Origin: Candidatus Calescibacterium sp.
Lineage (GTDB): Bacteria > DRYD01
DNA length: 64,000 bases
Direction of reading: 5' to 3'
Assembly (NCBI GenBank): GCA_025057615.1
Contig: JANXBF010000003.1
Coordinates: 6,828 to 70,827, forward strand
Part shown: positions 976 through 57,883 of the stretch, piece by piece
Layout: every line of letters begins with the position of its first letter
Numbering within the stretch: position 1 is the first letter of the stretch
Notes under the pieces: model-generated
What the model was told of the DNA's origin: nothing
Seen by the model: only the letters and a program-made list of their open reading frames with translations
Databases searched by the model: none
Made by a program: the position numbers and the translations under genes

Positions 976-978
976 AAA

Positions 979-2330: not shown

Positions 2331-2359
2331 TACATATACCTCACTACCTTTAATTTCAA
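2331..2359 (-). promoter_or_regulatory. Candidate sigma-70-type promoter for the fliM operon (TTGAAA-17 nt-TATGTA in gene orientation)
   Basis: The reverse complement reads TTGAAA (2354-2359), a 17-nt spacer, then TATGTA (2331-2336), about 25 nt upstream of the fliM ATG. This is a pattern match only. Confidence 0.25.
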
Positions 2360-2380: not shown

Positions 2381-2396
2381 TTTACATTTTTTTAAA
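2381..2396 (+). promoter_or_regulatory. Degenerate copy of the direct-repeat box (TTTACA-TTTT-TTTAAA) upstream of the 2481 gene
   Basis: It has the same orientation relative to the downstream gene as the strong copies at 6450, 42875 and 51963. The second hexamer is degenerate. Confidence 0.3.
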
Positions 2397-2432
2397 AATT
2401 TTTTCCAAAATAAAAAAATTTTTTTCCAAAAT
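2394..2432. repeat. Imperfect tandem duplication: AAAAATTTTTTCCAAAAT / AAAAAAATTTTTTTCCAAAAT
   Basis: Two adjacent units (2394-2411 and 2412-2432) differ only in A/T-tract length. They lie in the divergent fliM / 2481 promoter region. Confidence 0.7.
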
Positions 2433-3196: not shown

Positions 3197-3847
3197 TTAA
3201 TAAAAATATTTACTAAGAAAACTTAACATTTTTCTGGGTATCCGTTTGTGATTTCCCAAAATTAATAAGAAGTAGTTTATCTTTGCTATTTCCTCGACAC
3301 AAAAAGTCAAATCAACACATCTCTTAAAATCGTACGAAAAAACAACAAGTCCATGATTACGTAAAATAACAACGCCCTCCTTAACATTACCTAAAATCTT
3401 CTTAATATTCTTAACAACCTCAAAAGCTAAAATCTCAGTTCCAGGAGTAACATACTTTACATAAACTATCTGCCTTATCTTAACGTAATACTCTGGCAAT
3501 AAATCAAGTTTTATCTTTCTATTAGTACAACTGAAAATAACACAATACATTGGATGAGTATGCACGACAAAATTAACATCTTCAAAATTCTTATACAATT
3601 CTAAATGCAAATTTATCTCACTCGTTTGCTTAAAACCACCTAACAACTCATTTTCAAAATTAACAACTGAAATCATATCTCTTACTAAATTCCTTTTTCT
3701 TACAGATGTTGGAGTACAGTAAACTAAATCCCCAATTCTTATACTTATATTGCCAGAAGTTGAAGGGAAAAATCTATCCCCCAATTCATCTATAGCAAAT
3801 TTTATTTTCTTCCAGGCTTCATCCAAATCTTCTTGAAAAAACATCAA
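3197..3847 (-). CDS. Class II aldolase/adducin-family protein (FucA/AraD/MtnB-like)
   Basis: Contains the motifs STSGNISIR and NFVVHTHPMYC, and its ~216-aa length is typical of class II aldolases. Confidence 0.8.
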   Translation of the reverse strand: MMFFQEDLDEAWKKIKFAIDELGDRFFPSTSGNISIRIGDLVYCTPTSVRKRNLVRDMISVVNFENELLGGFKQTSEINLHLELYKNFEDVNFVVHTHPMYCVIFSCTNRKIKLDLLPEYYVKIRQIVYVKYVTPGTEILAFEVVKNIKKILGNVKEGVVILRNHGLVVFSYDFKRCVDLTFCVEEIAKINYFLLILGNHKRIPRKMLSFLSKYFY

Positions 3848-3855
3848 TAAATATC

Positions 3856-5547: not shown

Positions 5548-6386
5548 TCCTTTCTATTTTTAAATTCCGCAAATGGCTTTAAAAACCCCCCAAGAACAAT
5601 GCTTATAGGACGATGATCAGAAGCCAAAACAACCTCCGGCTTCTCTTTTTCATCAACAACATCATAAGTCCCCTGTATAACCAAATTCTTAACACTATCA
5701 GAAATTCTTATATAGTCAACTATACTCGGACCATGGCTAGCATAAACATCACTCATAGACATAGGCTGATAGTAGTGAGTCGGAACATCAATATCTTTTG
5801 ATAATTTATCAACATTTCTAACATCAATAAACCCATTTTTTTCAAAGATCTGGCTAACCTCAGAAAAAGGTAAATCATTATAATCACCCAATATAACTGT
5901 AGGGATTTTACTTTTATTTACCAACTCTATAGTTCTCCTGGCTTCCTTTTTTCTCTGTTCCTGAGACTCTGGATTCATCTTGGCTTTGAAATGTACAGAA
6001 ACAAATTTCATATCAAATCCGGGCATAATTTCAACAATAGCTTCAACAGGAGGCCTATAAAACACATCCTCTTTCTCATTTATTGTATAACTCTTTATCG
6101 GAAATTTTTTATCAACAAGCAATGCACAGGCTATACCTCTGCCATCACTTTTACCAACTATAACATTGTACCTATCTTTTAAACCAGCCAAAACTAACAC
6201 TTCCCTAACTATATTAGTATTTTCCACTTCCTGCAAAGCAACAATATCACTGTCAAGACTCTTCAGAACCTCTGCCAAAGCCTTCTTAGAAGCTTCTGAC
6301 TTAGGAGGTCCATCATCCTTAAGAGGATCATCAAACCTGTCAAACAAATTCTCAACATTATAAGTGGTAACCTTTATATTTATCAT
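5544..6386 (-). CDS. Endonuclease/exonuclease/phosphatase (EEP) family protein, no signal peptide
   Basis: The N-terminus TTYNVENLFDRFD, together with ALQEV, GDYND and SDHRPI, matches the EEP catalytic motifs. Its stop overlaps the metallopeptidase start by 4 nt (5544-5547). Confidence 0.8.
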   Translation of the reverse strand: MINIKVTTYNVENLFDRFDDPLKDDGPPKSEASKKALAEVLKSLDSDIVALQEVENTNIVREVLVLAGLKDRYNVIVGKSDGRGIACALLVDKKFPIKSYTINEKEDVFYRPPVEAIVEIMPGFDMKFVSVHFKAKMNPESQEQRKKEARRTIELVNKSKIPTVILGDYNDLPFSEVSQIFEKNGFIDVRNVDKLSKDIDVPTHYYQPMSMSDVYASHGPSIVDYIRISDSVKNLVIQGTYDVVDEKEKPEVVLASDHRPISIVLGGFLKPFAEFKNRKE

Positions 6387-6449: not shown

Positions 6450-6476
6450 TGTAAAAAAAATGTTAAAAAGTGTTTA
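6450..6476 (-). promoter_or_regulatory. Direct-repeat box, three hexamers: TAAACA-N4-TTAACA-TTTTT-TTTACA (gene orientation)
   Basis: The + strand reads TGTAAAAAAAATGTTAAAAAGTGTTTA. The box lies 64 nt upstream of the EEP gene start (6386). Its 14-mer core is identical to those at 42875 and 51963. Confidence 0.5.
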
Positions 6477-10522: not shown

Positions 10523-10557
10523 TTAACAATAGAGAAAAAGTTTTTACATTTTTTACA
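10523..10557 (+). promoter_or_regulatory. Direct-repeat box variant: TTAACA-N14-TTTACA-TTT-TTTACA
   Basis: It lies 59 nt upstream of the ATG at 10616, in the same orientation relative to the gene as the other copies. The spacer is shorter (T3). Confidence 0.4.
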
Positions 10558-10615: not shown

Positions 10616-11236
10616 ATGTCAGAAATAAGTTCAGTAGGTTCTGGAGCATCAAATGTAAGCCATGCCTCAAGTAGCGCTCCGACACAAGCAAGCAGCACGT
10701 CAACACAAGAAACTTCTGGAGCCAGTGAAAGTAGAAATCAAACAGAAACAAGAGAAAACAATGAAAATCTAAAAGATAAAGATAAAACAGAAAAAAATGA
10801 TGACAAGAAAAAACTTCAAGAAGAAATAGAAAAATTGAAAAAAGAATTAGAAGAACTAAAAAAACAACTTCAAAATCAACCTAGAAGCAGCGGAGGAAGC
10901 TGTTCTAGACCAAGTCAGCAACCACAACAAGCACAAAATAACCCCAATCAAAATCAAAATGACCCAAATCAATTAATAATCCAAGATATATTAATGGTTC
11001 TACAAGCCCTCCAAAACGGTGGCCAAGGGCTACAACAAGCAGTCCAAAAACTACAACAGGATTACATGATGATTAAATCCATGAAATTACCTCTAAAACC
11101 AGAAGTAGAACAAATGGCCCTACAAATACTCCAGCAATATGGAGGACAAGCAGGTATAGCTCATGGAATAAACCAAACACAAGCTATTAACCCATTAGGT
11201 CAATCATTAGGAGCAAACATAGGCAGAGCTTTTTAA
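10616..11236 (+). CDS. Low-complexity hypothetical protein: S/T-rich N-terminus, charged coiled coil, Q/N-rich C-terminal half
   Basis: The RBS is strong (AAGGAGGTGATTTAAATG). The sequence runs MSEISSVGSGASNVSHASSSAPTQASSTSTQETSGASE, then KKKLQEEIEKLKKELEELKKQLQ, then a Q/N-rich segment. There is no signal peptide or TM segment. Confidence 0.7.
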   Translation: MSEISSVGSGASNVSHASSSAPTQASSTSTQETSGASESRNQTETRENNENLKDKDKTEKNDDKKKLQEEIEKLKKELEELKKQLQNQPRSSGGSCSRPSQQPQQAQNNPNQNQNDPNQLIIQDILMVLQALQNGGQGLQQAVQKLQQDYMMIKSMKLPLKPEVEQMALQILQQYGGQAGIAHGINQTQAINPLGQSLGANIGRAF

Positions 11237-11303: not shown

Positions 11304-12253
11304 TATATTATTTTTTCTAATTTGTCCAGCTTGTTTAAATCTGAATACCTCAAAACCAAAGACTTTGAATAGTTAGAGAAAGGCCACCATCTTACTACCC
11401 TGTATTCAAAACCCTTGTCAGGAAAAAAAGAAACAACGTAAGGAACATTCAAAAAAGCAGCTAAATGAACAGGACCAGTATCAAAACCAACAAATAAAAA
11501 ACTATCAAAACATAAATCTATATAATCATTTATATTGTCTATAAATATTTTTTCTGTTTTAGCCCAAAAACTATCCCAATATTTTTTTTCATAGGGACCA
11601 AAAGTAACAACCAAATCACCTTTGGATTTTAAATAATCAACCAATCTATAATAATCACTAAAAGTAGCACCAAGTTGTAAAGACTTATAAGTAAAATGTA
11701 AAACCACTTTTCTCCTTTGCAAAACATCCCTCTTCCTACAATAAACCTCATAATTATATAATTCCAGGATTTTTTTATCATCTAATGATAAGTAGTTTAT
11801 ATCAAGATTCAAATGACTAAGGGAATGCAAAACAAAATTGAAAGTATTGAGTATATCATGACCCTTAAAAATTTCTTCAAAATCAATAAAAAAATATTTT
11901 TTCCCCAAAACCAATTTCAGAATTTTAAAAACCAACTTAGAGGAATAAGAAGAAATGAATTTGTAACCCGAGTTTACTTTCAAAATAGCTTTCAAGTGCT
12001 CGAATGACCTAACTTTTCCCCAAGGCCCCAAAAATAAAGCAACATCAAAATAATTACCACCTAATTGATGAATATTTTTTACATTAACAGTAGATAATCT
12101 CTCTTCCCTTATCAGATAGCTTGCCAACTTATCATGATTTGTAACCCAAATTATTTTTTCGATATCTTTAACATAATTCAAAAGAAAAGCCACAGTGGGT
12201 ATTGTAAACAATGTATCACCAAGACCATCATCCCTGTAAAATAGTATTTTCAT
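11303..12253 (-). CDS. Glycosyltransferase family 9 (LPS heptosyltransferase-like)
   Basis: The N-terminus MKILFYRDDGLGDTLFTIPT and the C-terminal GFDTGPVHLAA are typical of GT9. Confidence 0.65.
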   Translation of the reverse strand: MKILFYRDDGLGDTLFTIPTVAFLLNYVKDIEKIIWVTNHDKLASYLIREERLSTVNVKNIHQLGGNYFDVALFLGPWGKVRSFEHLKAILKVNSGYKFISSYSSKLVFKILKLVLGKKYFFIDFEEIFKGHDILNTFNFVLHSLSHLNLDINYLSLDDKKILELYNYEVYCRKRDVLQRRKVVLHFTYKSLQLGATFSDYYRLVDYLKSKGDLVVTFGPYEKKYWDSFWAKTEKIFIDNINDYIDLCFDSFLFVGFDTGPVHLAAFLNVPYVVSFFPDKGFEYRVVRWWPFSNYSKSLVLRYSDLNKLDKLEKII

Positions 12254-13274
12254 TTCTTCTAAGTTTTTCTAACTCTTTTAATTCTTCTGTCATCATTATT
12301 TCAATCAATTTATCAAATTTGACTTTTGGCTCCCATCCCAAAACATTCTTAGCTTTAGAGTAGTCACCAACAAGGAAATCAACTTCAGAAGGTCTATAGT
12401 ATTGCTTATCTGTAACCACCCTGATATTACCATTTTTATCCAACGCTATAAATCTTCCATCTTTTTCTTCCCACCTTAAATACATATCAATAAAAGAAAA
12501 AGCTTTTTCAATCAATTCCTTAACACTATGTGATTCCCCAGTAGCTAAAACAAAATCTTCAGGAACATTGTGATTCATCATGAGATACATTCCATAAACA
12601 TACTCAGGGGCATATCCCCAATCACGCTTAGCTTCTATATTACCTATTTCCAATTTTTCTAATAACCCCAGCTTTATCTTCGAAACACTATTAACAACTT
12701 TTTTTGTCACAAATTCAATAGACCTCAACGGAGATTCATGATTAAACAAAATACCACACACATTAAACATATCATAAGCTTCCCTATAATTCACAGTTAT
12801 CCAGTGTGCAAACAATTTAGAAACACCATAAGGACTACGAGGATAAAAAGGCGTGGTCTCTTTTTGAGGTATCTCTATAACTTTACCAAACAATTCAGAA
12901 GTTGAAGCCTGATAAAACTTGGTATCCTTAGAAAACATCCTGATGGCCTCCAGAATTCTTAAAACACCCAAAGAATTAACATTTGAAGTAAGAATTGGTT
13001 GCTTAAAGGAAGCATGAACAAAACTCTGAGCGGCAAGATTATAAATCTGATCAAATCTGTGTTCTCTTATAACTTCAGCAACATTACTATCTTCAAGTAA
13101 ATCCATATATATTATTTTCACTTTATCCTTTATTTTGAGTTTTTCAAGTCTCCAATATGAAGCATCGGAGCTTCTTCTATCTGCTCCGTAAACTTCATAC
13201 CCTTCTTCCAAAAGAAGCTTTGCCAAATAAGCACCATCCTGCCCTCTGATTCCTGTAATCAAAACCTTTTTCAT
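12228..13274 (-). CDS. gmd: GDP-mannose 4,6-dehydratase
   Basis: MKKVLITGIRGQDGAYLAKLLLEEGYEVYG, YGVSKLFAHW and NHESPLRS form the canonical Gmd SDR signature. Confidence 0.9.
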   Translation of the reverse strand: MKKVLITGIRGQDGAYLAKLLLEEGYEVYGADRRSSDASYWRLEKLKIKDKVKIIYMDLLEDSNVAEVIREHRFDQIYNLAAQSFVHASFKQPILTSNVNSLGVLRILEAIRMFSKDTKFYQASTSELFGKVIEIPQKETTPFYPRSPYGVSKLFAHWITVNYREAYDMFNVCGILFNHESPLRSIEFVTKKVVNSVSKIKLGLLEKLEIGNIEAKRDWGYAPEYVYGMYLMMNHNVPEDFVLATGESHSVKELIEKAFSFIDMYLRWEEKDGRFIALDKNGNIRVVTDKQYYRPSEVDFLVGDYSKAKNVLGWEPKVKFDKLIEIMMTEELKELEKLRRNENTILQG

Positions 13275-13282
13275 GACCCCTC

Positions 13283-14212
13283 CTAAACAGCTATTTTATC
13301 CTTAATAGATTTGACATATTCAAAAGCTCTAATAGCAGCAATAGCGCCGTCAGAAGCAGAAGTAACTAACTGTTTCTCACTTCCACTCCTTACATCTCCT
13401 GCCGCAAAAATTCCATCCGTCCTGGTTCTCATATGCTCATCCGTTTTTATAAATCCATACTCATCCAAATCAACAAGATCCTTATAAATACCAGTCTTTG
13501 TTTCAAATCCAATAAAAATGAAAATTCCATCCACAAATAATTTAGATATTTCTCCAGTTTTTACATTTCTAATAACCAGATGATCAACACTATTGTTACC
13601 TTTAATTTCTTCAACAATAGTATTCCAAATTATTTCAACATTAGGTAATCCCAAGACTTTATCTTGAAGATACTTAAATCCCCTAAATTGGTCTCTTCTG
13701 TGTATTAAGTAAACTTTCTTGGCGATATTAGCCAAATATGGAGTTTCCTGTAAAGCACTGTTTCCTCCGCCGACAACTGCCAGAACCTTTCCTTTAAAAA
13801 ATGGCCCATCACAAAGAGCACAGTAAGAAACCCCCCTACCCGCAAATTCCTGCTCACCAGGAACATTCAGCTTCTTATGTGTCATCCCCGCTGTTATTAT
13901 TAAACTCAAAGACTTATAAACCCCATTCGATGTAGTTATATTTATTAATACACCATCGGTTTTTATCTGCTCAACCTCCTCAAGAGTATTTATCTTTGCC
14001 CCAGCAATTTGTGCTTGCTTGGTCATAATATCTGCTATCTGAGGCCCAGATACGCTTATATATCCCGGATAATTCTCTATTTCATTCGTCAAAAGCAGTT
14101 GTCCACCAGGTAATTGCTTCTCAAATACAATAACACTAAGGCCCAACCTAGCAGCATACATAGCAGCAGTCAGTCCTGCTGCTCCAGCACCAACTATAGC
14201 ACAATCGTACAT
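13283..14212 (-). CDS. trxB: Thioredoxin-disulfide reductase
   Basis: Contains an FAD motif (IVGAGAAGLTAA), the redox-active CALCDG motif and the NADPH motif VVGGGNSA. Confidence 0.9.
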   Translation of the reverse strand: MYDCAIVGAGAAGLTAAMYAARLGLSVIVFEKQLPGGQLLLTNEIENYPGYISVSGPQIADIMTKQAQIAGAKINTLEEVEQIKTDGVLINITTSNGVYKSLSLIITAGMTHKKLNVPGEQEFAGRGVSYCALCDGPFFKGKVLAVVGGGNSALQETPYLANIAKKVYLIHRRDQFRGFKYLQDKVLGLPNVEIIWNTIVEEIKGNNSVDHLVIRNVKTGEISKLFVDGIFIFIGFETKTGIYKDLVDLDEYGFIKTDEHMRTRTDGIFAAGDVRSGSEKQLVTSASDGAIAAIRAFEYVKSIKDKIAV

Positions 14213-14239
14213 ACTTGCTCACCCCTTCCATCATTAAAA

Positions 14240-17200
14240 CTAAATCAACTTAATAAAAACAAGAGTTATATCATCCGGAGGATTAGATAAAGGACTAGAA
14301 CTGAATTTCATAACCTCAATATAAACTCTGTCAGTCAACTCCTTAACATCCTGAGTAACTGAAGAAACATTCTTAATTAAATCCAAAAGTCTACTTCTAC
14401 CAAAACTCTCTGAATTCTCATTCTTTATATCAATCACCCCATCGGTATACAAAAACAAAATATCTCCTGAATCCAACTCATAATCAGATATTTTATACTC
14501 ATAGTATTCGTCTATACATAGTGGGATATCCTTCGTTGAAAGAATATCTATATGGCCATTTTTCTTAATAACAAACAAAGGTTCATGGCCAGCTGTCAAA
14601 TATTGACAATAGACTTTATCCTTTCGACGGTATATATTTATCGCAATCATTGTTATAAATGTATTATCAGAGACTGTAACAGAAAGTATTTTATTAAGCT
14701 CATTTACAGCAATCTCAAAATTATCCAATGAATGAAATAAAGACTTAGCGGCAAATTTGGCCTGTGCAGTATATATAGCAGATTTAGCACCTTTACCAGA
14801 AACATCAGCAACTATAACAATCAGGTTATCCTTTTTATCTATAAGCTCAACCCAATCAGCAGTTATCTCTCTTGAAGCAACATGCTTATAATTGAAGTCT
14901 ATCCCCTTCTTATGTAAATTTCTCCTATCTATCCGTGTGATAAGAGACTGCCTTATTATGTTGGACACTTCAACCTGTTCCTGCATTATCATAGAATTTT
15001 TCAAAGGAGTAGCCAAAGCATAAGGAATATTAGTTAATATCCAGATTAACGTATCATTAATATTATCTCGGGTAAAACCCATTATTATATACCCCAAAAC
15101 CTCCCTCAAATAAACAATTGGAATAACAAATACCTGTTTAACATCATAAAAAATTTTTGAAATCTCACTCCATATCTTCTTATAGTTCTTATCACTAAGT
15201 ACGTTTTTCTGATTTATATTAACTACGTTAGTACCAATAAAACCCAGAGTTTTTATAAGTAAACTGTAATCTATGTTCAATTCTTTCGGTTTAGTGTATA
15301 TGAACTCAAAACTATGATATTTTTTTACAGTAAAAAGAAAGATTTCAGGTTTGAGTAATTCCTCCAAAAATTCACGGGCATTCATAACAACATTATAAGG
15401 ATCCAAAACTGATGTAACAATCCTCAGAAAATTATACAGTATATCCGTAGCTTTGAGTCTTTCTTCTAAAAAAGAATAAATAGAAGCATTCTCAAAAAAT
15501 ATACTAAAATGATTCGCTAAACTGTAAAGTAAATCAATATACTCCTGTTCAAACCTATTTGACAAGCTAAAAACAAGAAGAACAGGCTGTAAATCAGAAA
15601 CTTCTATCTTAATAGGTAAAATTAATAAGCTCTTCAAGTTTGACTTCTTTACAAAATCATAAATATTAATGTTATCAAAAAAAAGCTCAAGATTATTAAT
15701 AAGAATGGGTTTGAAAACACCTCTACTAGTCAATTCAACACTTTCCTTTACCTTATTAATAATCAAACTTGGAAGATTATTAATTACAGTTAAAACCAAG
15801 CTTTTATAATGCTCCAAAGTCTTAACCAATTGAATATTACCATTTCTATAGTAACCAAAAACAGGTAAAGAATAACTAACAAGATTATTAATCTCTTTCA
15901 CAATATTACCTATGAGAACATTTATATCCCTTATGGAAGAGTAATCAAAAATTACCCTGTTTATTATTTTGCTTTCATTAGATTTTGATAACAATTTCTC
16001 ATATGCAGCGACTCTGGAAAAAACATAAGAAAATAAAACAGATAAATGATTAGACAGAATATCCAAAATAGTCTGATAGTTAACCCAAAACTGATATCTA
16101 ACATTAAATATTATGAGAGCACTAATATTATTTCTGTCCAAAATAGGTATTATTACGTAAGGACGCTGGAAAATTAGATCAAAGAATCTCACCAGATCAC
16201 TTTTTTGATCATCTTCTCTAAAAACAATCAAAGACTTATATGAAGCAAACTTCTGATACAAATCATCAGATATAATTGTCAAAGACAATTCTGAAGCCTC
16301 AACAAAATTCAGAAGCTTCGAATTCGTAATCTTAACATAAGAAGGTTTAAAAATCTCACCCTTTGTCTTCTGAAATATCACAAAATCACAACCCGAAAAC
16401 ATATCGTTAACAATACCAAAAAGCATCTGATATAACTCTTCAAACGAATTAACCTCGGATAGCTTAGCAGATCCAATAAACAGTTTTTCCAAAAAAGTGT
16501 TCTTTATAGCCAGTTGCTCAAAAAGGTTTCTCGTTTCCAAAGCTGTAGCTATATTGCTCGTAACAGTAGATACAAAATCTAAATCTATACTGGACAATTC
16601 AGTCTCTTTAGAAAACAAAAGTATAAAAATACCAGTTCCTATAACAGGAATAGAAAACCTTTTTACAAACGCACTTTTTAGATGCCTTAAATAAACATTC
16701 TCTATCTTTATTATCTCACCCTCAGTATAAAATAAATCAAATTTCTTTTCAATAGTATTTTTAAGCTCAGGAATAATAAAATTCAATTCCTGTTCTATTA
16801 ATTTATTGGAAGTAGTATATACAACTTTGTTTCTAAAAAATATCAAACAAGCACTACAAAGAACCAATTCCTGCGTTATCTGACAAATTATCTTCAATAT
16901 AACATCCTCCGATAAAGAAGACAACATAGCTTTTGAAATATCATAAAAAGCTCTCCTGTATGCATTGAACTTAACCCCAATATACTTCAATTCCGAAATA
17001 GAATTATACAACTCCTTAAAAGAAAGAAATATAAAAATAACATATTTTAAATTCTGAATAATAATAGAAGCCAACTCTCTACTGCACTTAACATTCATAA
17101 CAATATAGCCAATAATTTCTTCTTTCAAACCAATCGGAAAAATCAGCTTATCATTTGAATCAACCAATTCCTGAGAAAAGTATATCTCATCCGCTAAACC

Positions 17201-17344
17201 ACAACTTTTGACTATTTCAAAACATTGATCTAAAAATTCGTTTAAACTGATCCTCTGAATATTCTCTGTTTCAACAAGCCGCTCTAATAAATCATCCAAG
17301 CCCTTTATAATTTTCTCAATACATATTAATTCCATAAATACCAT
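14240..17344 (-). CDS. Large cytoplasmic sensor phosphatase: ~750-aa N-terminal GAF-like repeat region plus C-terminal PP2C/SpoIIE domain
   Basis: The C-terminal ~220 aa (ADWVELI...VIVADVSGKGAKSAIYTAQ...YLTAGHEP...LYTDGV...DDITLVFIKL) match SpoIIE/RsbU-type PP2C. The N-terminal region is called GAF-like only by its repeated ~150-aa periodicity. Confidence 0.7.
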   Translation of the reverse strand: MVFMELICIEKIIKGLDDLLERLVETENIQRISLNEFLDQCFEIVKSCGLADEIYFSQELVDSNDKLIFPIGLKEEIIGYIVMNVKCSRELASIIIQNLKYVIFIFLSFKELYNSISELKYIGVKFNAYRRAFYDISKAMLSSLSEDVILKIICQITQELVLCSACLIFFRNKVVYTTSNKLIEQELNFIIPELKNTIEKKFDLFYTEGEIIKIENVYLRHLKSAFVKRFSIPVIGTGIFILLFSKETELSSIDLDFVSTVTSNIATALETRNLFEQLAIKNTFLEKLFIGSAKLSEVNSFEELYQMLFGIVNDMFSGCDFVIFQKTKGEIFKPSYVKITNSKLLNFVEASELSLTIISDDLYQKFASYKSLIVFREDDQKSDLVRFFDLIFQRPYVIIPILDRNNISALIIFNVRYQFWVNYQTILDILSNHLSVLFSYVFSRVAAYEKLLSKSNESKIINRVIFDYSSIRDINVLIGNIVKEINNLVSYSLPVFGYYRNGNIQLVKTLEHYKSLVLTVINNLPSLIINKVKESVELTSRGVFKPILINNLELFFDNINIYDFVKKSNLKSLLILPIKIEVSDLQPVLLVFSLSNRFEQEYIDLLYSLANHFSIFFENASIYSFLEERLKATDILYNFLRIVTSVLDPYNVVMNAREFLEELLKPEIFLFTVKKYHSFEFIYTKPKELNIDYSLLIKTLGFIGTNVVNINQKNVLSDKNYKKIWSEISKIFYDVKQVFVIPIVYLREVLGYIIMGFTRDNINDTLIWILTNIPYALATPLKNSMIMQEQVEVSNIIRQSLITRIDRRNLHKKGIDFNYKHVASREITADWVELIDKKDNLIVIVADVSGKGAKSAIYTAQAKFAAKSLFHSLDNFEIAVNELNKILSVTVSDNTFITMIAINIYRRKDKVYCQYLTAGHEPLFVIKKNGHIDILSTKDIPLCIDEYYEYKISDYELDSGDILFLYTDGVIDIKNENSESFGRSRLLDLIKNVSSVTQDVKELTDRVYIEVMKFSSSPLSNPPDDITLVFIKLI

Positions 17345-23066: not shown

Positions 23067-23750
23067 TTAATGCAAAGTCTTTTCTTTTATAAAATTTCTT
23101 ATCTTATCTAAAGCTGACCTGTGAATCTGATTAACACGTTGCTTAGATAAACCCATTTCGCTTGAAATAACAGCAAGTTTTTTATTTTCAAAATATATTT
23201 TTCTCAATACGTTTTGTTCATTAACGTTAAGAACGTTATCTATAGCCTGTAAAATCAAAAGGAAAACTTCATTCAACTCAATATTTTCCTCTAATACATT
23301 ATCACTATCCTTAAGGACATTACTCAGTGACAAACCCTTATCATAGGACTGACTAATAGAAGACATATTCCTATAAGACAAACTAATTATCAATCCCAAA
23401 ACTTCATTTCCCTTACTTTCAGAAATTTTTTTGAATATCTTCAATTGATCCCTAATAGAAACATTCATATACTTTGAAAATTCCTGCTTTATATACCAAT
23501 TCATCACTTTGCTCAAAAACTTGATAAACGGAACATTTTTGGTGTAATCAAAAGCCTCTATGGCTTTTAGAAGAGAAAAAGAAGCAATCCCAAAAACCTC
23601 ATCCCTATCCAAATTTATAAAATCACAATACTTTCTGTAAATCCTCAAACCTATGGAATAAGAATAGTTAATATATTTTTCTATCAGAGCATCGCGGGCC
23701 TCTAGATTATAGTTTTCCTTGTAATCTATCCAAAGCTCTAAATCATCCAT
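23067..23750 (-). CDS. Group-3 sigma-70 family sigma factor (FliA/WhiG sigma-28-like)
   Basis: Region 2 (ARDALIEKYINYSYSIGLRIYRK...VFGIASFSLLKAIEAFD) and the region 4.2 HTH (LSKQRVNQIHRSALDKIR) are present. The 227-aa length fits FliA-type sigmas. Confidence 0.65.
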   Translation of the reverse strand: MDDLELWIDYKENYNLEARDALIEKYINYSYSIGLRIYRKYCDFINLDRDEVFGIASFSLLKAIEAFDYTKNVPFIKFLSKVMNWYIKQEFSKYMNVSIRDQLKIFKKISESKGNEVLGLIISLSYRNMSSISQSYDKGLSLSNVLKDSDNVLEENIELNEVFLLILQAIDNVLNVNEQNVLRKIYFENKKLAVISSEMGLSKQRVNQIHRSALDKIRNFIKEKTLH

Positions 23751-24833
23751 TCACAACACCATTCTCATCAATTCATCAAACTTGGAATCAGAATAAATAC
23801 TTTTTCGCAACTTATCATCGCCCCAAAGTATATCTATAGGCATTTTTTCATACTCATACTCATACGGAGGATCAATAAATTTAAAATCATCAGGATACAA
23901 ATCAACTATACTTTTTAAAACTATTAAAAAAGTCTTTAAACTTTTGAACCTCTTTTTTTCAACTATAATCATTTTTAAACCATTACATATTTCTTCTTTA
24001 TATTTATCAAAAGTTGGTTTGAAACGGTGGTAAATAAACTCCACCCCATCAACAAAATATTTCCTTTTATAATACTCCACTCTTTTTTTTAGTTTTTCCT
24101 CATTTATAAATGGTGCTCCAAAAACTTCAAAAGGGTATGTCGTACCTCTACCTTCACTTATGTTTGTAGCTTCAAACAATGCAAAACCTGGATAAAAATA
24201 TACAGTTTCCATAGAGGGAATATTAGGCGAAGTTGGTATCCATCTTAATCCAAGCCCGTTCCAGTCCTCAAACCTATCAAATTCACCATCAACAATACGA
24301 ACATTTCCACAACCATCCAATATATCACCTATGGTCATACCATGTCTGTTGTAAATACTTTTCATACCAACAAAAGAGAAAAATTCGTTTTTCAGTATCA
24401 CTCCCTCTTTCATACTACCCAAAGGATTCGGCCTATCAAAAACAACGACATCTATACCCGTTTGACAAATAAGCATTGCAGTCCAAACATAAGTATAATA
24501 CCTTGCACCAATATCTTGAATGTCAACAAAAACAACATCCAAATCTTCCAACCTCTCCCTACCAAAAAAACAGCTTCCATCATATAAACTAATACACTCA
24601 ATATTAAAAATTTCATCATAATAATTCTTAAAAGATATCATATTGGCTTGAGTTATAGGGAATAGACCATGTTGAGGAGCCAGCACCTTTACAACATTGT
24701 ATCCTAACGATCTGAGATAATCAAGAGTGAAAACAAACCCAGGTTGAACAAAACTGGCCTGATTTATTAATAAACCAACTCTGCTATTCCTATACTTAGA
24801 AAAAAGTTTAGGAGCTTTTAATATACCAAACAT
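23751..24833 (-). CDS. DUF1343 family protein (NamZ-like exo-beta-N-acetylmuramidase family)
   Basis: The conserved blocks LINQASF, APQHGLF, VFVDIQDIGARYYTYVWT, FDRPNPLG and NRHGMTIGD match DUF1343. Confidence 0.75.
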   Translation of the reverse strand: MFGILKAPKLFSKYRNSRVGLLINQASFVQPGFVFTLDYLRSLGYNVVKVLAPQHGLFPITQANMISFKNYYDEIFNIECISLYDGSCFFGRERLEDLDVVFVDIQDIGARYYTYVWTAMLICQTGIDVVVFDRPNPLGSMKEGVILKNEFFSFVGMKSIYNRHGMTIGDILDGCGNVRIVDGEFDRFEDWNGLGLRWIPTSPNIPSMETVYFYPGFALFEATNISEGRGTTYPFEVFGAPFINEEKLKKRVEYYKRKYFVDGVEFIYHRFKPTFDKYKEEICNGLKMIIVEKKRFKSLKTFLIVLKSIVDLYPDDFKFIDPPYEYEYEKMPIDILWGDDKLRKSIYSDSKFDELMRMVL

Positions 24834-29959: not shown

Positions 29960-30063
29960 AAATCTTTTAATTACTTTTCTTTACAATAAAAATAAAACCT
30001 TTCTAAAATAATCTGAAATTTAAATTAAAGGGAACCAAATTTGGTTATAAAATAATATATAGT

Positions 30064-41399: not shown

Positions 41400-42815
41400 T
41401 TAGGAAATAATAGTTTCTGGAGGTTCTGGATTGGGATTTGGATTAGGTTCTGGTGATGGTGAAGGAGGTGATGGTGGAAGCATACTCAAAGCTTCCTTTA
41501 CAGCTTCGTATACATTAACCAAACCTGATCCTTGATCAAATTGGTCATATGGTTTATTATCAGTTGGGTCGGTTTTCGTGAGTTTTATTGCATGCTTCAT
41601 AAGTAATTCTTTAACTTGCTGTTGCGTAAGGTTTGGATTTGCATTCAATATTAGCAGCATAGCACCTGCAACACCTGGTGTAGCCATTGAAGTTCCAGAT
41701 ATTGCTATATATTTTCCGTCAGCAGTTACAGGTATCCTACCTTGCTTTGCAAGTTTGTCCAATTCACTGCCTGGTGTATTAGCTGCCCAAATCTGGACGC
41801 CGGGCATTGATACATCGGGTTTAAGCTTAGAAGTTTCATCTGGAGCATTCTTAACTGGTCCTCTTGAAGAAAACCTGGCTATATCATCATCAGCCAAATC
41901 CTCAGTTTTTTTGTCTTGATATGCAGCAACAGTAACTGCATTTGGAGCTATAGCTGGTGTACCAACCGTATTCTGTGTAGGTCCACTATTACCAGCAGCT
42001 ATAGCAAAATAAACCCCGTCTTGTATAGCTTTCTCAACGGCCAAGGCCAGAGGATCTTGATTCCATGGCTTAAAAGCATAGCCACCTAAGCTCATATTAG
42101 CAACGACTTTTTTACCTTCTTGTTTTGCCTTTTCTACCACTTTGTTTATTCCTCGGATAATATCAGATGTGTAACCTGACCCTCCGTCGCTGAGGACTTT
42201 AATACCCCATATTTCAGCTGCTGGTGCTAAACCAGTAAACCTTCCATCGCCAGCAGCTATACCAGCAACGTGTGTTCCATGGCCGTGGCCATCATGAGGT
42301 TTGGTATGTCCTGAAGAAGTGGCATCAAAATGATAAGTTAACCTGGAACCCCAGTCATCGTGATTAGCAACACCAGTGTCTATAACAGCAAGTACCAATC
42401 CTTGACCCTTATAACCCATTTCATGTACTTTATCTGCACCAGTAATTTGTAATGTTACGTTTTTTTCTGGTAAACTCTGAACTTCTTGTGAGGTTTTGAC
42501 TCCAACTTTTTGCTTCATTTTTTGAAGTTCTCTTGTTTGTTTTAACTCTTCGGGCTCAACCAATCCCACTTTCTCATCCTTGAATACATTCACTCCTTCT
42601 GGCAAAGACTTGTATATGTTTGGTAAAGAATTCTTCTTTACTTCTGCAAGAACAAAGCCATTTCCCAAGTCCTCGACAACCCTTCCTGCCTTTAAGGTCT
42701 TCAAAATCTTTTCTATTTTGGCTTTATCCCCTGTAAAGATCACTCTTTCTAGTTCTTCTCTTTGTGTCTTACGATGCACATTCTCGTGTCCCCTCAACGG
42801 GTTTATGTTATTCAT
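41400..42815 (-). CDS. Subtilisin-family (S8) serine protease with N-terminal propeptide-like region, Pro-rich C-terminal tail, no signal peptide
   Basis: The catalytic triad blocks VIDTGV, HGHGTHVAGIAAG and SGTSMATPGVAG are present. The N-terminus MNNINPLRGHENVHRKTQ is hydrophilic. The C-terminus is PPSPPSPSPEPNPNPNPEPPETIIS. Confidence 0.9.
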   Translation of the reverse strand: MNNINPLRGHENVHRKTQREELERVIFTGDKAKIEKILKTLKAGRVVEDLGNGFVLAEVKKNSLPNIYKSLPEGVNVFKDEKVGLVEPEELKQTRELQKMKQKVGVKTSQEVQSLPEKNVTLQITGADKVHEMGYKGQGLVLAVIDTGVANHDDWGSRLTYHFDATSSGHTKPHDGHGHGTHVAGIAAGDGRFTGLAPAAEIWGIKVLSDGGSGYTSDIIRGINKVVEKAKQEGKKVVANMSLGGYAFKPWNQDPLALAVEKAIQDGVYFAIAAGNSGPTQNTVGTPAIAPNAVTVAAYQDKKTEDLADDDIARFSSRGPVKNAPDETSKLKPDVSMPGVQIWAANTPGSELDKLAKQGRIPVTADGKYIAISGTSMATPGVAGAMLLILNANPNLTQQQVKELLMKHAIKLTKTDPTDNKPYDQFDQGSGLVNVYEAVKEALSMLPPSPPSPSPEPNPNPNPEPPETIIS

Positions 42816-42874: not shown

Positions 42875-42891
42875 TGTAAAAAAAATGTTAA
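42875..42891 (-). promoter_or_regulatory. Direct-repeat box TTAACA-TTTTT-TTTACA (gene orientation)
   Basis: The + strand reads TGTAAAAAAAATGTTAA, 60 nt upstream of the subtilisin start (42815). The 14-mer core is identical to those at 6450 and 51963. Confidence 0.5.
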
Positions 42892-44111
42892 TTTCTAATC
42901 TTTAATTTTTTTTCATAGAAATCTAATAATAATTCAAAAGCTTCAAAAAAAGAAAGTGCAATCCTATCTTTATACATAGGAAGATTATTGTCTGAGTATC
43001 TACTCCTAAGAGGATGTTTAAAGTATATTGCCAAATGTTCCTGAATACCATAATTTCCCAATTTCAGTGACATATCCATGTGTTTTATTAGATCTAGTAC
43101 CAATGGTGCAGCTAAAATTGAATCTCTTCCAATCCAATTTATTTTGAAACTCATTGGTAATCCCAAGAATCCTTCGAAATCTACGTTATCCCAAGCCTCT
43201 TTATTGTCGTATCTTGGTTTGTAAAAGCTTATATCAACAACATGTTCAAAATCAGAATATCCAAGAATTGGCTCAAGAACGCTTAGTTTATCCTCCATCT
43301 TTAAGTGCCTATGTTCTGGCCTTGATAAAATTTTACCATCATTGTTACCAAGTATATTGGTACTATACCAACCAATCAACTTGAAATTCCTAATTTTTAG
43401 CATAGGAGCAATCAGGGTTTTCATAAGAGTCTGACCAGTATTACCGTCCATACCTGCCAGTGGAACCCTATATTTTATAGATAAATCTTCAATAAAGTCC
43501 AATTGCAATGTAACATTGGGAGTAAAATCTATAAAAGGACAACCTTCCATAATAGCAGCAACAGCATAGGCAACAGAAGAAGGCAAATAATTCCCATCTA
43601 TTATTTTTAAATCATCAAAAGACACAGAGTTTATCTGAGAAAAAGGTTTCAAATTTTTCAAAGGCAAAGCCAAGTATACAACAAAAACTCTTTCAATTCT
43701 ATTATCGCTCTTAAATCTTTTTATGTCATCTCTTATTAGGTTTACTGCTTCCATGAAATTGGGAAGTTCCCACATTTTTACCGAGTAATCACTACTGATA
43801 GCCTCATCAGAATCCCACAAATTAACATATCCCTTCATGGGAAACATATTACTCAATGTTTTTTCGGAATCCCTATAAAATTCAAAAGGTATTATTCTAT
43901 GGTAGTTTGCCATATTAAATGAGTTTTCTAAGAACACGTCCCAGCCACCAAAAACCATCTCTCTTTCACTTAGAAATTCAACGTTTTTGAAATATTCTGT
44001 AGATATTATGCTCCCTAGATTCTGTTTATCACTTTTTGATTTGGCCCCCGTTATTACAGTATTCGCAACAGTTCCATTAAAACCAACAAACATCACACCA
44101 ACCATAATCAT
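42888..44111 (-). CDS. myo-Inositol-1-phosphate synthase family protein
   Basis: The blocks LAGMDGNTGQTLMKTLIAPML, STNILGNNDGKIL, YKPRYDNKEAWD and RDSILAAPLVLDL match the bacterial/archaeal MIPS (COG1260-type) layout. Confidence 0.8.
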   Translation of the reverse strand: MIMVGVMFVGFNGTVANTVITGAKSKSDKQNLGSIISTEYFKNVEFLSEREMVFGGWDVFLENSFNMANYHRIIPFEFYRDSEKTLSNMFPMKGYVNLWDSDEAISSDYSVKMWELPNFMEAVNLIRDDIKRFKSDNRIERVFVVYLALPLKNLKPFSQINSVSFDDLKIIDGNYLPSSVAYAVAAIMEGCPFIDFTPNVTLQLDFIEDLSIKYRVPLAGMDGNTGQTLMKTLIAPMLKIRNFKLIGWYSTNILGNNDGKILSRPEHRHLKMEDKLSVLEPILGYSDFEHVVDISFYKPRYDNKEAWDNVDFEGFLGLPMSFKINWIGRDSILAAPLVLDLIKHMDMSLKLGNYGIQEHLAIYFKHPLRSRYSDNNLPMYKDRIALSFFEAFELLLDFYEKKLKIRN

Positions 44112-44125
44112 TCTCCCTTCCTTAT

Positions 44126-45040
44126 TTATCCATTATTTATCATCAAACTAATTCCTATCAGAAAAAGAGAAATATACCCTATATTCACTTGATTTCTCAT
44201 AATAGGAATATGATTCTCTAAATCCTTATAATTCAAACTATTCCAAAAATTTTTTGCCATCAAAGGAATAGTTAACAAAGAGAGAAGAGAAAAAATATTC
44301 AGAAAACCTTGGAAAAATAGAAAAACTATTATAGAGTAAAAAATTGACATCATAAACAAATAAATGTAGCTAGCCTTTTCTCTTCCAAACCTAACTATCC
44401 AGTTTTTTACCTGAACCCTCTTATCATTTTCATAATCTGGGAACTCATTTATCAAAAGAACAGTGGATTTCCATAGACCTGGAAGAAAAAAAAGCAAAAA
44501 AGTATTCACATCGAGAATATACCTATCAGTTTCGAACATACATATATATGTCCCAAGAGATATTAAAGAGAAACCGATTATCATAGCCAATTCTCCCAAG
44601 CCAACCGTCTTCAAAACTGGGGTATAAAGTAAAATCATCAGCACACCAATAAATCCAATGATTAACAGAATTTTATGTTGAAAACTCAGGTATATACCAA
44701 TAAGGCATCCAACCAGAAAAAGAATTATCGCAAATGTTCCCATTTCAAACGGGGATATCAAACCCCTAACCAAATATCCTCCCCCTCCACTATATTCAGA
44801 AACACTTTCCAAAGTATCATTACCTCTCAGATAGTCAAATACTTCATTAAAAGCATTAACAGAAAGATGTAGAAAGAGAGCACCAACAAGAGTCAAAAAA
44901 GCATTCAAAAAATTGAAATATCCATTGTTATAGGCCAAACTAACACCTATCAACCAACAGGGAATAGACATCAGTATTATATGAGGTCTCAAAGCTATAA
45001 AATAGTCTTTTACCCTATTAATACGAAAATTGAAAACCAT
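44126..45040 (-). CDS. UbiA-superfamily prenyltransferase, MenA-like motifs
   Basis: About 8 TM helices. The first Asp-rich motif NEVFDYLRGND follows the N(D/E)xxDxxxGxD pattern, and the second is NEFPDYENDKRVQVKNW. Confidence 0.7.
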   Translation of the reverse strand: MVFNFRINRVKDYFIALRPHIILMSIPCWLIGVSLAYNNGYFNFLNAFLTLVGALFLHLSVNAFNEVFDYLRGNDTLESVSEYSGGGGYLVRGLISPFEMGTFAIILFLVGCLIGIYLSFQHKILLIIGFIGVLMILLYTPVLKTVGLGELAMIIGFSLISLGTYICMFETDRYILDVNTFLLFFLPGLWKSTVLLINEFPDYENDKRVQVKNWIVRFGREKASYIYLFMMSIFYSIIVFLFFQGFLNIFSLLSLLTIPLMAKNFWNSLNYKDLENHIPIMRNQVNIGYISLFLIGISLMINNG

Positions 45041-50081: not shown

Positions 50082-51890
50082 CTATGTAGTTGAAGCTTGC
50101 AATTGTTCTTTATCATTTTTGAATAAATTGTTAAATTTTTCAATAATTCTATTTTTTATGTTCCCGAGTTTCTCAGCAACTCTCTCTTTAAAATTTTCAG
50201 TTCCAACCATAGAGTATATCTGGAATATCAACTTGGCTATTTCTATACCAATAGATACAACGCCAAACAATCTTCCCAATCCAAGTGCAGCCAAAGCCAA
50301 TGATACACCTCCAACAATGTTAAGTAAACCTTGTATTCCTATTCCCAGATTATTTCTTTCGTCAGCCATTTGCATCATTTTAGCCCCCTGTATGATATCC
50401 CTTGTAGATCCAATGAGCCCAAAAATAGAGGTAAGCCCTCCATATCCTCCGCCGAATATTGTGCTCCAACCCATCCAGAATTTTCCTAGACTACCAAGCC
50501 CATTAACAAAGTCTCCGCCGGCAGTCCCTATAGCATAACTATTTTTCAAAGTATTCTCATCATTTTTATTCTCATTTTTTGAGATCTTATTTTTAGCAGT
50601 GAATAATTTTTCAAGCCCCATGAATAGCAATGAAGCAACAGAAAATCCTACCACACCCAAAGGTCCAAAGAGCGGACCCAAAAAACTTAATAACATAGAA
50701 AATCCGCTGAGGAACCTAAATAACCCAACTTTGAAGTTTTCTGGTTTATTATCCACTGCAGAATTCTTGAGAATACTTGCTCCTTCAAGCGATTTTATAG
50801 TTCCCCCTACTATAGATGCTATACTACCCAAACCACCAGGCTGCTTAGTAAGTATATTATTAATCAATGAAGTAAAAGATAAAACATCGGCAGAACCTTT
50901 GATAAAATTTTCAGTTGATTTACCTGTGGAGTCCATTATTTTTTCAACACCTGAATTTTTATAAGGTGTATTTTTTTGGAATTCATCGATTTCTTTTTCA
51001 TTTTTATTTTTAGAAAACCAACTCTTTACGGTATTAAAGACCTTGGATACCACTCCTAAGGAAGCTCCAACAGCTCCACCTATGACACCACCAATCAATC
51101 CATAAATTTCCTTGGCAAATCCTTTAACAGCGTTGAAAACCTTCACTCCAATAGGTAATGAAGCCAATAAACCCAATCCAATCGAAGGGACAAATCCAAC
51201 TGTCCCAAGAGATAATGACATGATTAACAGAGCCAAAGGAGCCATCATCACAGCACTAACAGCAAGAGCTAATGGAACATTCGCCCAGTTTCCTGCCTTC
51301 TTGTTTGATTCCTTGCTCCATTCAACACCCAAATTGAACCCATTCCTAATATACTCCATAAAGCTTTCACTATTTTTGAGTTTTTCAAGGGAAATTTTGA
51401 GTTCTTCCACTCTGGTTGGATCTTCCTTTTGGAGCATCTGGTAGGTGGTTTGTCCACCCGCGACTGCACCAGCAATTGCAGAACTGTACTGAGTTCCAAC
51501 TAATCCAAGTGCCAATATTGATTGAAGAATTTGGAGCACTGGCTCAGATATATTTACAGCAACTCCCCCAGAAAACAACAACTGAATCAGGAAAGAAATT
51601 GGAACAAGAGCAAAATTGAAAGTGAAATAAGCCAAAGCTCCAGCTAAAGCAGCACCAAGAACTGATAAACCAACAGCTTTAGCATCCAATTTTTTTACAT
51701 CAAATTCACTTATTTTTTCTTTGATCTTTTCAAAGCTCTCTTTAAGATCAGAATGCATTCTAGTGAAAAAGTCCCCAACTTCTTTGCTTTCATCCAAAAA
51801 ATTTACGCCAATAAAATTTTTTAAATAACCCTCACTAAAATTAACTTCATCAAAAGATTTCTGGTGAGCTTTATTTAAGATTATATTCAT
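50082..51890 (-). CDS. Large glycine-zipper-rich membrane protein (602 aa), unknown family
   Basis: RBS is AGAGGTG. A hydrophilic, coiled-coil-like N-terminus (~70 aa) is followed by at least five long Gly/Ala/Leu-rich hydrophobic blocks. Examples are AVGLSVLGAALAGALAYF, IYGLIGGVIGGAVGASLGVV, LSFLGPLFGPLGVVGFSVASLLF and LLNIVGGVSLALAALGLGRLFGVV. The blocks are separated by K/N/E-rich loops. Confidence 0.75.
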   Translation of the reverse strand: MNIILNKAHQKSFDEVNFSEGYLKNFIGVNFLDESKEVGDFFTRMHSDLKESFEKIKEKISEFDVKKLDAKAVGLSVLGAALAGALAYFTFNFALVPISFLIQLLFSGGVAVNISEPVLQILQSILALGLVGTQYSSAIAGAVAGGQTTYQMLQKEDPTRVEELKISLEKLKNSESFMEYIRNGFNLGVEWSKESNKKAGNWANVPLALAVSAVMMAPLALLIMSLSLGTVGFVPSIGLGLLASLPIGVKVFNAVKGFAKEIYGLIGGVIGGAVGASLGVVSKVFNTVKSWFSKNKNEKEIDEFQKNTPYKNSGVEKIMDSTGKSTENFIKGSADVLSFTSLINNILTKQPGGLGSIASIVGGTIKSLEGASILKNSAVDNKPENFKVGLFRFLSGFSMLLSFLGPLFGPLGVVGFSVASLLFMGLEKLFTAKNKISKNENKNDENTLKNSYAIGTAGGDFVNGLGSLGKFWMGWSTIFGGGYGGLTSIFGLIGSTRDIIQGAKMMQMADERNNLGIGIQGLLNIVGGVSLALAALGLGRLFGVVSIGIEIAKLIFQIYSMVGTENFKERVAEKLGNIKNRIIEKFNNLFKNDKEQLQASTT

Positions 51891-51962: not shown

Positions 51963-51979
51963 TGTAAAAAAAATGTAAA
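51963..51979 (-). promoter_or_regulatory. Direct-repeat box TTTACA-TTTTT-TTTACA (gene orientation)
   Basis: The + strand reads TGTAAAAAAAATGTAAA, 73 nt upstream of the 602-aa gene start (51890). The 14-mer core is identical to those at 6450 and 42875. Confidence 0.5.
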
Positions 51980-52023
51980 AAAAATTAAAGGTAAAATATT
52001 TCTAGCTATAGAAATAGTAAAAT

Positions 52024-52278
52024 ATGGAATGTAAAATAGTTACTCCCTATTTCTCAAAAACAGTGAATGTAAAAGAGATATCCATAGACAGCACTAATGG
52101 TGTTCTTTTAATATATCCACAACATACTGACATGATATCCTCTATAAAGAAAGATTCTCTTTTGAATATAAAATCAACTGAAGGTAGCTTAAAATATAAG
52201 TGTAATCAAGGAGTTATAAAAATTCAGTCCAACAAAGCATTGATTTTAATAGATACAGATGAAAAGGATAATATGTGA
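52024..52278 (+). CDS. ATP synthase epsilon (AtpC) N-terminal beta-sandwich-like protein, truncated and orphan
   Basis: 84 aa. The sequence KIVTPYFSKTVNVKEISIDSTNGVLLIYPQHTDMISSIKKDSLLNIK...GVIKIQSNKALILIDTDE aligns by eye with the AtpC pattern IVTP...G.lGILPgH.p....L..G.l......gGf.ev..n.vtiLad.ae. There is no C-terminal helical hairpin. Confidence 0.5.
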   Translation: MECKIVTPYFSKTVNVKEISIDSTNGVLLIYPQHTDMISSIKKDSLLNIKSTEGSLKYKCNQGVIKIQSNKALILIDTDEKDNM

Positions 52279-57747: not shown

Positions 57748-57883
57748 AAAAATTTATCATTATTCTAAAAAAATTTTTGTAACCAAAATAAAAAGGTAAA
57801 ATAAAAAAAAAATATAATTATAAAAAAGAATAATTGAAATAAATACAAAATTGTAATGAGTTTAATACAAGGAGGTAATAGGA

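Follow-up and report, generated by a model that had tools for sequence, protein, structure and literature searches.

Operators of OmpR/PhoB-family response regulators are two imperfect direct repeats of about 6-7 bp that lie on one face of the helix, 10-11 bp apart from start to start, and enclose an A/T-rich, unconserved spacer. PHO-type boxes are bound by tandem head-to-tail dimers, and in Bacillus these boxes consist of TT(A/T/C)ACA hexamers with 11-bp periodicity and are found in promoters without a good -35 element. The staphylococcal genes pstS, phnD and pitA carry sites such as TTAACAGTTTTTTTACA, the WalR consensus is TGT(A/T)A(A/T/C)-N5-TGT(A/T)A(A/T/C) (PMC5405149), and the site of KdpE in Escherichia coli reads TTTATA-N5-TTTACA, with an A/T-rich N5, at positions -72 to -50 (PMC3264566). 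Here we describe an element with the properties of such operators, a 17-bp box of two hexamers (TTWACA-N5-TTWACA), in a stretch of 64,000 nucleotides (nt) from Candidatus Calescibacterium sp. (contig JANXBF010000003.1, about 30% G+C; hereafter the window), in which it marks a putative co-regulated gene set. To our knowledge, nothing is known about gene regulation in the Calescibacterota, an uncultured, deep-branching and thermophilic lineage.

An initial annotation of the window had noticed an exact 14-mer, TGTAAAAAAAATGT, occurring three times on the plus strand (6450-6463, 42875-42888 and 51963-51976), each time intergenic and in fixed orientation upstream of a minus-strand gene. This observation stands: three matches compare with 0.02 expected from dinucleotide-preserving shuffles (n=100), and at least three copies arose in none of these 100 shuffles. 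Read in gene orientation, the three sites are 17-bp boxes of the form TT(A/T)ACA-TTTTT-TTTACA located 59-72 nt from the start codons of genes that all lie on the minus strand:

51963-51979, minus strand: box TTTACA-TTTTT-TTTACA, 72 nt upstream of the start codon (51890) of a gene for a protein of 602 amino acids (aa)
42875-42891, minus strand: box TTAACA-TTTTT-TTTACA, 59 nt upstream of the start codon (42815) of an S8 subtilase gene
6450-6466, minus strand: box TTAACA-TTTTT-TTTACA, 63 nt upstream of the start codon (6386) of a gene for an EEP-fold enzyme, the first in an operon

The reading as two hexamers with 11-bp periodicity likewise proved correct, since every perfect site has the form TTWACA-N5-TTWACA, and so did the statement, made in the same annotation, that the Bacillus subtilis PhoP consensus is TT(A/T/C)ACA at this periodicity. 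Perfect matches to TTWACA-N5-TTWACA in the window are the same three sites only (0.20 expected), and when TT[ATC]ACA pairs separated by 2 to 8 nt were compared, spacer 5 alone recurred, again at these three sites only. The boxes themselves are 94-100% identical, while their 40-nt flanks share 33-45% identity, which is roughly random for the composition. The sites are thus not copies of a dispersed or mobile repeat, and such an element was ruled out as their source. Matches with one mismatch number 8 against 6.9 expected and are therefore at chance level, so that imperfect copies carry no meaning without further evidence. A third hexamer that had been noted at the EEP site, TAAACA at 6471-6476, is present, but it is not conserved in the orthologues.

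The same pattern extends to related genomes, in which 426 kb of Calescibacterota sequence contain 22 perfect spacer-5 boxes against 2.3 expected by chance. All 22 lie upstream of, and co-oriented with, a gene, at 46-92 nt before its start codon. Crude open reading frame (ORF) calls had misplaced four of them (three labelled as coding sequence and one at a distance of 10 nt), which the database gene calls put in intergenic DNA at 67 nt from the EEP start. Many of these boxes are orthologous, so the 22 are not independent and come from about eight independent families of genes. As a cis-element the box is real and non-random, and the transcription units that it marks are otherwise unrelated.

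Conservation was followed in sampled genomes of 21-34% G+C, with proteins 41-96% identical to those of the window, at loci that hold relatives of the 602-aa gene (L001-L008), of a 563-aa gene that follows the EEP gene (L009-L019) and of a 232-aa gene (L025-L028); the sequence sampled is a small, redundant part of these genomes. The 602-aa gene has the box at nine of nine orthologues (all eight in L001-L008, plus L026), where both hexamers are intact at 63-92 nt from the start, the spacers read TTTTT, CTTTT, TTTTA, TATTT, AATTT or AAATT, and the flanks cannot be aligned. The box is also kept at four of four S8 subtilase orthologues, among them those in L001, L004 and L008. At every locus examined in L009-L019, the orthologue of the EEP gene is preceded by the box or a close variant, in forms including TTAACA-ATTAT-TTAACA, TTTACA-CTTTT-TTTACA and, in the most A/T-rich clade, TTAACT-N5-TT(T/A)ACA; the pair of EEP and 563-aa genes is itself kept in L009-L011. 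The site of the 232-aa gene reads ATTTTACATTTTTTTAAAAA in L010 and TTAACA-TTTAT-TTAAAA in L025, the distant orthologues in L026 and L028 have a perfect box, TTAACATTTTTTTTACA, at 73-74 nt, and in L027 the gene sits behind a boxed 72-aa gene. Altogether, seven different spacers made of A and T (with C) occur among orthologues, ATTAT included: the hexamers stay while the flanks randomise. By this phylogenetic footprinting the box is found in up to nine genomes per gene family and, as judged from the sampled loci, the putative regulon is conserved across the Calescibacterota. A one-mismatch site, TTAACA-ATTTT-TTTAAA, is present some 57 nt before a TsaD/TsaB-family gene in L026 (16877-16893) and L028 (16631-16647), on the plus strand; these are two closely related A/T-rich genomes, the gene would be the sole one of housekeeping type with a box-like site, and the match may be due to chance.

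Three further sites of the window, all of them proposed in the initial annotation as shorter or weaker versions of the box, were judged as well:

2381-2397, plus strand: variant TTTACA-TTTTT-TTAAAA of the box, 83 nt before the start of the 232-aa gene, which is itself divergent from fliM
10523-10557, plus strand: atypical arrangement TTAACA-N14-TTTACA-TTT-TTTACA, with a spacer of 3 instead of 5, 58 nt upstream of a 206-aa gene
29969-29985, plus strand: rejected 'weak copy', with AAAGGTTTT-N10-TAAAGA on the minus strand instead

The first of these is genuine, but its proposed spacer of 4 was wrong: the site is better described as a spacer-5 box with one mismatch at 2381-2397, and since it is kept in L010 and L025 and perfect in L026 and L028, it is a real box with a proximal TTAAAA. 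The second, described as a spacer-3 site at 10543-10557 accompanied by TTAACA at 10523-10528, exists in that form, and the whole arrangement is identical in L010 before a 176-aa orthologue (two genomes sampled); from this conservation, the spacer-3 site is probably functional. The third had been counted as a weak sixth copy and had to be dropped, since one-mismatch matches are at chance level and its TTTACA falls on the reverse complement of a -10-like element, TAAAGA. This element belongs to a promoter of another type (described below) that serves an operon for a membrane protein and an alkaline phosphatase on the opposite strand, and the weak copy is probably the -10-like element of that promoter as judged by its sequence. 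Read on the plus strand, TTTACA-N18-TAAAAT would suit the gene at 30064 as an ordinary promoter.

The genes of the window that stand behind the box are the following:

50082-51890, minus strand: glycine-rich, all-helical hydrophobic protein of 602 aa, lineage-specific and without a Pfam hit
41400-42815, minus strand: S8 subtilase of 471 aa without a signal peptide
3197-6386, minus strand: operon of three genes (EEP/563-aa/aldolase)
5544-6386, minus strand: EEP-fold enzyme (nuclease/phosphatase fold), operon gene 1
3856-5547, minus strand: 563-aa protein with HEVGH and HEAFSD motifs, operon gene 2
3197-3847, minus strand: class II aldolase, operon gene 3
2481-3179, plus strand: 232-aa orphan with a predicted beta-rich fold and no match in the PDB
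10616-11236, plus strand: 206-aa orphan of low complexity, rich in Ser, Thr and Gln, a probable member

Only about 25 relatives of the 602-aa protein exist, and the named ones come from metagenome-assembled genomes of Candidatus Calescibacterium, from the hot-spring phylum Calescamantes/Calescibacterota. An exact look-up finds no record of this protein, its family has no sequence relative in the PDB, and the predicted model is of low confidence, with a predicted local distance difference test score (pLDDT) of 58. The 232-aa family is similarly restricted (about 20 members, all from this lineage), and here the AlphaFold model is confident and beta-rich (pLDDT 81, predicted template modelling score 0.80), but nothing in the PDB matches it significantly (best E-value 0.006, with a TM-score, that is template modelling score, of 0.16). 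The 563-aa protein matches nothing in Pfam. Its HEVGH and HEAFSD sequences, which we take to be the motifs of thermolysin-type zinc peptidases, mark it as a putative metallopeptidase of that type. The flanks of the related loci add new boxed genes, namely those for a C11 clostripain-family peptidase (L007), for a second, different subtilase (L012) and for a 71-aa Tyr/Asp/Gly-rich protein (L009, L013 and L027). The members therefore comprise four peptidases (two kinds of S8 subtilase, the C11 peptidase and the protein with thermolysin motifs), the EEP enzyme and lineage-specific orphans. None of them has a Sec signal peptide or an N-terminal hydrophobic segment: the highest 12-residue hydropathy within the first 35 residues is at most 0.77 in the members versus 2.9 in the alkaline phosphatase. 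The rest of the window consists of ordinary housekeeping genes, together with fliM/fliN/fliO and the alkaline-phosphatase operon. Calescamantes have been proposed to live by degrading peptides (PMC4791363), and for this reason a nutrient-scavenging role of the regulon, which would also suit its wealth of proteases, is plausible.

This membership bears on the idea, raised with the first description of the box, that the genes might serve phosphate scavenging. A Bacillus-type PHO box would be bound by a PhoP/PhoB orthologue and induce its genes under phosphate starvation. The hexamer and its periodicity match the Bacillus PhoP consensus, staphylococcal pstS, phnD and pitA carry the near-identical TTAACA-N5-TTTACA in the same orientation, and the EEP-fold member could release phosphate. 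However, the alkaline-phosphatase operon of the window, which does encode a signal-peptide-bearing protein, has no box facing it, and neither have its homologues in L003 and L006; the box has two repeats and not four; and the members are mainly peptidases and orphans, with no pst, phoU, phoD or phn gene among them in sampled DNA that itself contains no pst genes. The phosphate link is accordingly not supported, and we hold a PHO box of this type to be very unlikely.

Several neighbours of the boxed genes merit description. The 51963-51979 box stands 9 nt from the AAAGGTAA element of a divergent operon whose first gene, an 84-aa ORF (52024-52278, plus strand) overlapping the aroA start, is real and conserved, with 56-92% identity in five loci; the operon continues with aroA and mreB. 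The 84-aa protein has the N-terminal beta-sandwich domain of the ATP-synthase epsilon subunit, its gene stands alone, away from any atp operon, and 44 nt separate its start from the box that serves the divergent 602-aa gene. The 42875-42891 box overlaps the stop codon of the inositol-1-phosphate synthase gene upstream. This myo-inositol-1-phosphate synthase gene and an adjoining UbiA-family prenyltransferase gene (42888-45040, minus strand) directly precede the boxed subtilase gene, in an arrangement kept in L001, L004 and L008, and the pair may relate to inositol-containing lipids or thermoprotective solutes. The boxed 232-aa gene is divergent, in three genomes, from a short cluster of flagellar-type export and switch genes, fliM, fliN, fliO, fliP and fliQ (window 709-2308, minus strand; L010 13140-15737; L025 7237-9831), which is directly followed by unrelated genes (GHMP kinase).

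The architecture of the element was examined in a family-weighted information profile of 25 sites. Apart from T's that precede the box and an A that follows it, the signal is confined to the 17 bp, and no conserved position stands at a fixed distance downstream; both half-sites share the conserved positions TT.ACA. One or two turns away there are no additional TTWACA-like hexamers, the scores at -22, -11 and +22 from the distal hexamer being at background, and the unit is one pair of half-sites. Downstream of the sites, no G/C-containing word is common to them at a fixed offset. TG dinucleotides, which are rare here, peak at 18 and 29 nt behind the box, with one helical turn between the peaks, a tentative, post hoc observation in seven families that would fit helix-face-dependent activation. 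Taken as extended -10 elements, they would put the centre of the box near -41 or -52. Other promoter readings were discarded. A sigma-28 reading, TAAA-N15-GCCGATAA, and a sigma-B reading, GTTTAA/GGGTAT, were tried by eye, and the lone GGGTAT after the EEP box is unconserved and wrongly spaced. Taking the proximal hexamer as a -10 element (TACAAT) gives no -35 partner and leaves the distal hexamer unexplained. A generic sigma-70 scan is uninformative in such A/T-rich DNA (84 found versus 81 expected), and an Rfam search returned tRNA only.

Another account of the box would be an ordinary housekeeping -35 element with a T-tract UP element, recurring because strong promoters look alike. TTTACA is one base from TTGACA, the genome is A/T-rich, and the box or a variant occurs in 5 of the roughly 15 promoter-bearing intergenic regions of the window. 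On the other side, TATAAT-like hexamers show no enrichment 16-18 bp after the proximal hexamer, the distal hexamer keeps its ACA although an UP element has no need of it, and the membership is functionally non-random. Furthermore, in 100 upstream regions nearly all gene-facing TT[GTA]ACA hexamers belong to box promoters, and about 70 of the 88 other (longer) upstream regions have no box, from which it follows that the box is neither a generic -35 element nor an UP element. Neither in the window nor in the loci was it found before suf, aroA/mreB, fliM, gatB, ribosomal-protein or tRNA genes. The scenario of a generic -35 element with a T-tract, which the initial annotation had itself named as one that would undo its proposal, was thus checked and found to be contradicted by the lack of a -10 element and by housekeeping promoters without the box; we consider it highly improbable.

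Many of these roughly 70 regions share a different signal, AAAGGTWA-N11-12-TAnAnn. This second, promoter-like motif, in full AAAGGT(A/T)A-N11-12-TA(T/A/G)A(A/G)(A/T), stands before housekeeping operons and is kept in orthologous regions. Its sites in the window are 51988-52012 (plus strand), 57793-57820 (plus strand), 2327-2350 (minus strand) and 29978-30001 (minus strand), and elsewhere it occurs at L001 9880, L004 9680, L010 5073 and 13097, and L009 21002. The operons concerned include atpC-like/aroA/mreB, ABC/suf, fliM, the alkaline-phosphatase operon and DUF2085. Matches are intergenic in 31% of cases versus 8% of the sequence, and their total of 55 is modestly above the 38 expected. The motif ends 7-38 nt before the start codon and some of the genes have no Shine-Dalgarno sequence, a position that suggests short or absent leaders.

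We propose that the box is the candidate operator of one dedicated activator, for which a winged-helix response regulator of OmpR/PhoB type is the most likely class, and give this reading a probability of about 0.5. A head-to-tail dimer of the OmpR/PhoB type is inferred because the half-sites are identical, 11 bp apart and separated by a free A/T spacer, because their orientation is fixed and because the core promoters are weak. In the proposed mechanism, two DNA-binding domains would bind head to tail to the two TTWACA half-sites, which, being 11 bp apart, would lie on the same face of the helix with the A/T spacer in the minor groove between them. The box would stand just upstream of, or overlap, the -35 region of promoters without good core elements, and the bound dimer would recruit RNA polymerase. 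Several points weigh against this proposal. No response-regulator gene was found with PhoB and OmpR as tblastn queries in the sampled loci, which are a small part of the genomes, and the genes adjoining the boxed genes include no regulator (they encode a thymidine kinase, a biotin-lipoyl protein, an RRM protein and a pseudouridine synthase), a weak MarR-like protein being present beside a boxed gene in L009 only. Where the box stands with respect to the promoter is itself an inference. The spacer-3 site of the 206-aa gene, though conserved, breaks the 11-bp rule. By extrapolation a genome would have some 50-80 sites, many for one typical response regulator. Finally, a promoter element recognised by a sigma factor would just as typically keep a strict orientation and a narrow range of distances to the start codon, and TTTACA itself is the -35 element of TcdR-type sigma factors (PMC4031146).

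These last points lead to a second explanation, in which the box belongs to an alternative-sigma promoter with the proximal TTTACA as a -35 element of the TcdR/BotR type, the distal hexamer as an extra contact and a -10 element too A/T-rich or too degenerate to be seen. Besides the -35 sequence, the strict orientation and the box-to-start distance of 46-92 nt, the estimated number of sites is within the range of sigma regulons, and 18-19 nt behind the proximal hexamer G is met somewhat often. The window also encodes a divergent group-3-like sigma factor (23067-23750) and a SpoIIE/PP2C phosphatase (14240-17344), with STAS proteins in related loci. Against it, there is no conserved -10 element of any kind at a fixed distance, the distal hexamer is as conserved as the proximal one and at the same positions, so that a -35 element alone is insufficient, and proximal variants such as TTAACA and TTAAAA are tolerated. 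Moreover, the sigma factor of the window, the only one seen in the sequence covered, gives weak best matches to the FliA/WhiG and SigB/F/G models and not to the TcdR type. We regard an alternative-sigma promoter as a serious, though somewhat unlikely, explanation. The sigma-70-family protein in question is of 227 aa and encoded on the minus strand, with region 4 as the only part that Pfam recognises; the phosphatase, also on the minus strand, is a GAF and SpoIIE/PP2C protein of 1034 aa, and the STAS-domain proteins are encoded in L026-L028. By their domains, these proteins look like a partner-switching module.

A third explanation is that the tandem A/T-rich repeats are occupied by a DNA-binding protein of another kind, such as a repressor, a nucleoid-type protein or a regulator from outside the response regulators. 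The ribbon-helix-helix and AraC families also bind direct repeats, the sampled loci show no response-regulator gene, and the spacer-3 site and box-like arrays beside a CRISPR (clustered regularly interspaced short palindromic repeats) array in L027 suggest flexible binding modes. Yet the half-sites coincide in sequence, length, spacing and spacer composition with three characterised operators of the OmpR/PhoB family, and the constant gene-facing orientation suggests activation with a fixed geometry and not repression; a protein of another class is therefore in our view unlikely. The L027 arrays are tandem box-like hexamers, TTAACAATTTTTTAACAATTTAACAATTTTTTAACA and TTTACATTTTTTTAACATATTTTTAATATATTTTTAACA, in a gene-free stretch (11731-12004, minus strand) between the 232-aa gene cluster and the CRISPR array (about 12283-14552, repeat GTTTTAGCCTACCTATAAGGAATTGAAAC), which is accompanied by type III Cmr genes. 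The hexamers are directed away from the CRISPR array, and no gene is called downstream of them.

In all, what had been put forward at the outset as a co-regulated module stands as far as the direct-repeat form of the OmpR/PhoB type and the shared, conserved box are concerned, without the Pho regulon and without the sixth site. The box is a near-invariant and easily scanned marker that joins about eight gene families, half of them of unknown function, and it predicts that the orphans are expressed together with a set of peptidases. A broader and quite doubtful possibility is that of a phylum-wide programme for making degradative enzymes without Sec signals, together with lineage-specific proteins, that leave the cell non-classically under the control of one regulator or alternative sigma factor, in an organism with two unusual promoter classes. 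If so, the export route might be, for example, the flagellar-type apparatus encoded beside one member (the 232-aa gene), the programme would include a glycine-rich membrane-active protein as well as Tyr/Asp-rich and Gln/Ser-rich small proteins, and neither the box class nor the AAAGGT housekeeping class would resemble a canonical pair of -35 and -10 elements.

Among known systems, the box shares with the sites of Bacillus subtilis PhoP the TT(A/T/C)ACA hexamers, the 11-bp periodicity and the location on the coding strand. It differs from them in having exactly two repeats, where Bacillus PhoP normally has four (two dimers), and in its genes, which are not phosphate genes and do not include the alkaline-phosphatase operon. 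The reverse complement of every perfect box, TGTAAA-N5-TGT(A/T)AA, fits the WalR (YycF) consensus exactly. WalR sites, however, occur in either orientation and at variable distance, whereas the box is fixed in the opposite orientation, and WalR controls cell-wall hydrolases of Gram-positive bacteria, whereas the genes here encode peptidases and orphans. A Calescamantes host has been inferred to be Gram-negative (PMC4791363), and no peptidoglycan hydrolase is found among the members, the NamZ muramidase gene of the window (23751-24833) having no box. The promoters of the clostridial group-5 sigma factors TcdR, BotR, TetR and UviA resemble the box in their -35 element, TTTACA, which is the proximal hexamer at most sites here, and in preceding genes whose products are exported without classical regulation; unlike the box, they possess a -10 element, GTTATA or GTTAAT, that is defined and at a fixed distance, and they have just the one upstream hexamer. 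The E. coli KdpE site serves one potassium-uptake operon, whereas the box serves many unrelated units, with no kdp gene among the boxed genes, and lies closer to the gene (for the subtilase, 48-60 nt to the start codon including the Shine-Dalgarno sequence). It is nevertheless the closest single operator: like the box, it comprises one dimer site and is read towards the gene, and the boxes of L004 and L010, TTTACA-CTTTT-TTTACA, differ from it at one hexamer position. The TTWACA-N5-TTWACA half-site architecture of OmpR/PhoB regulators would thereby reach beyond Firmicutes and Proteobacteria.

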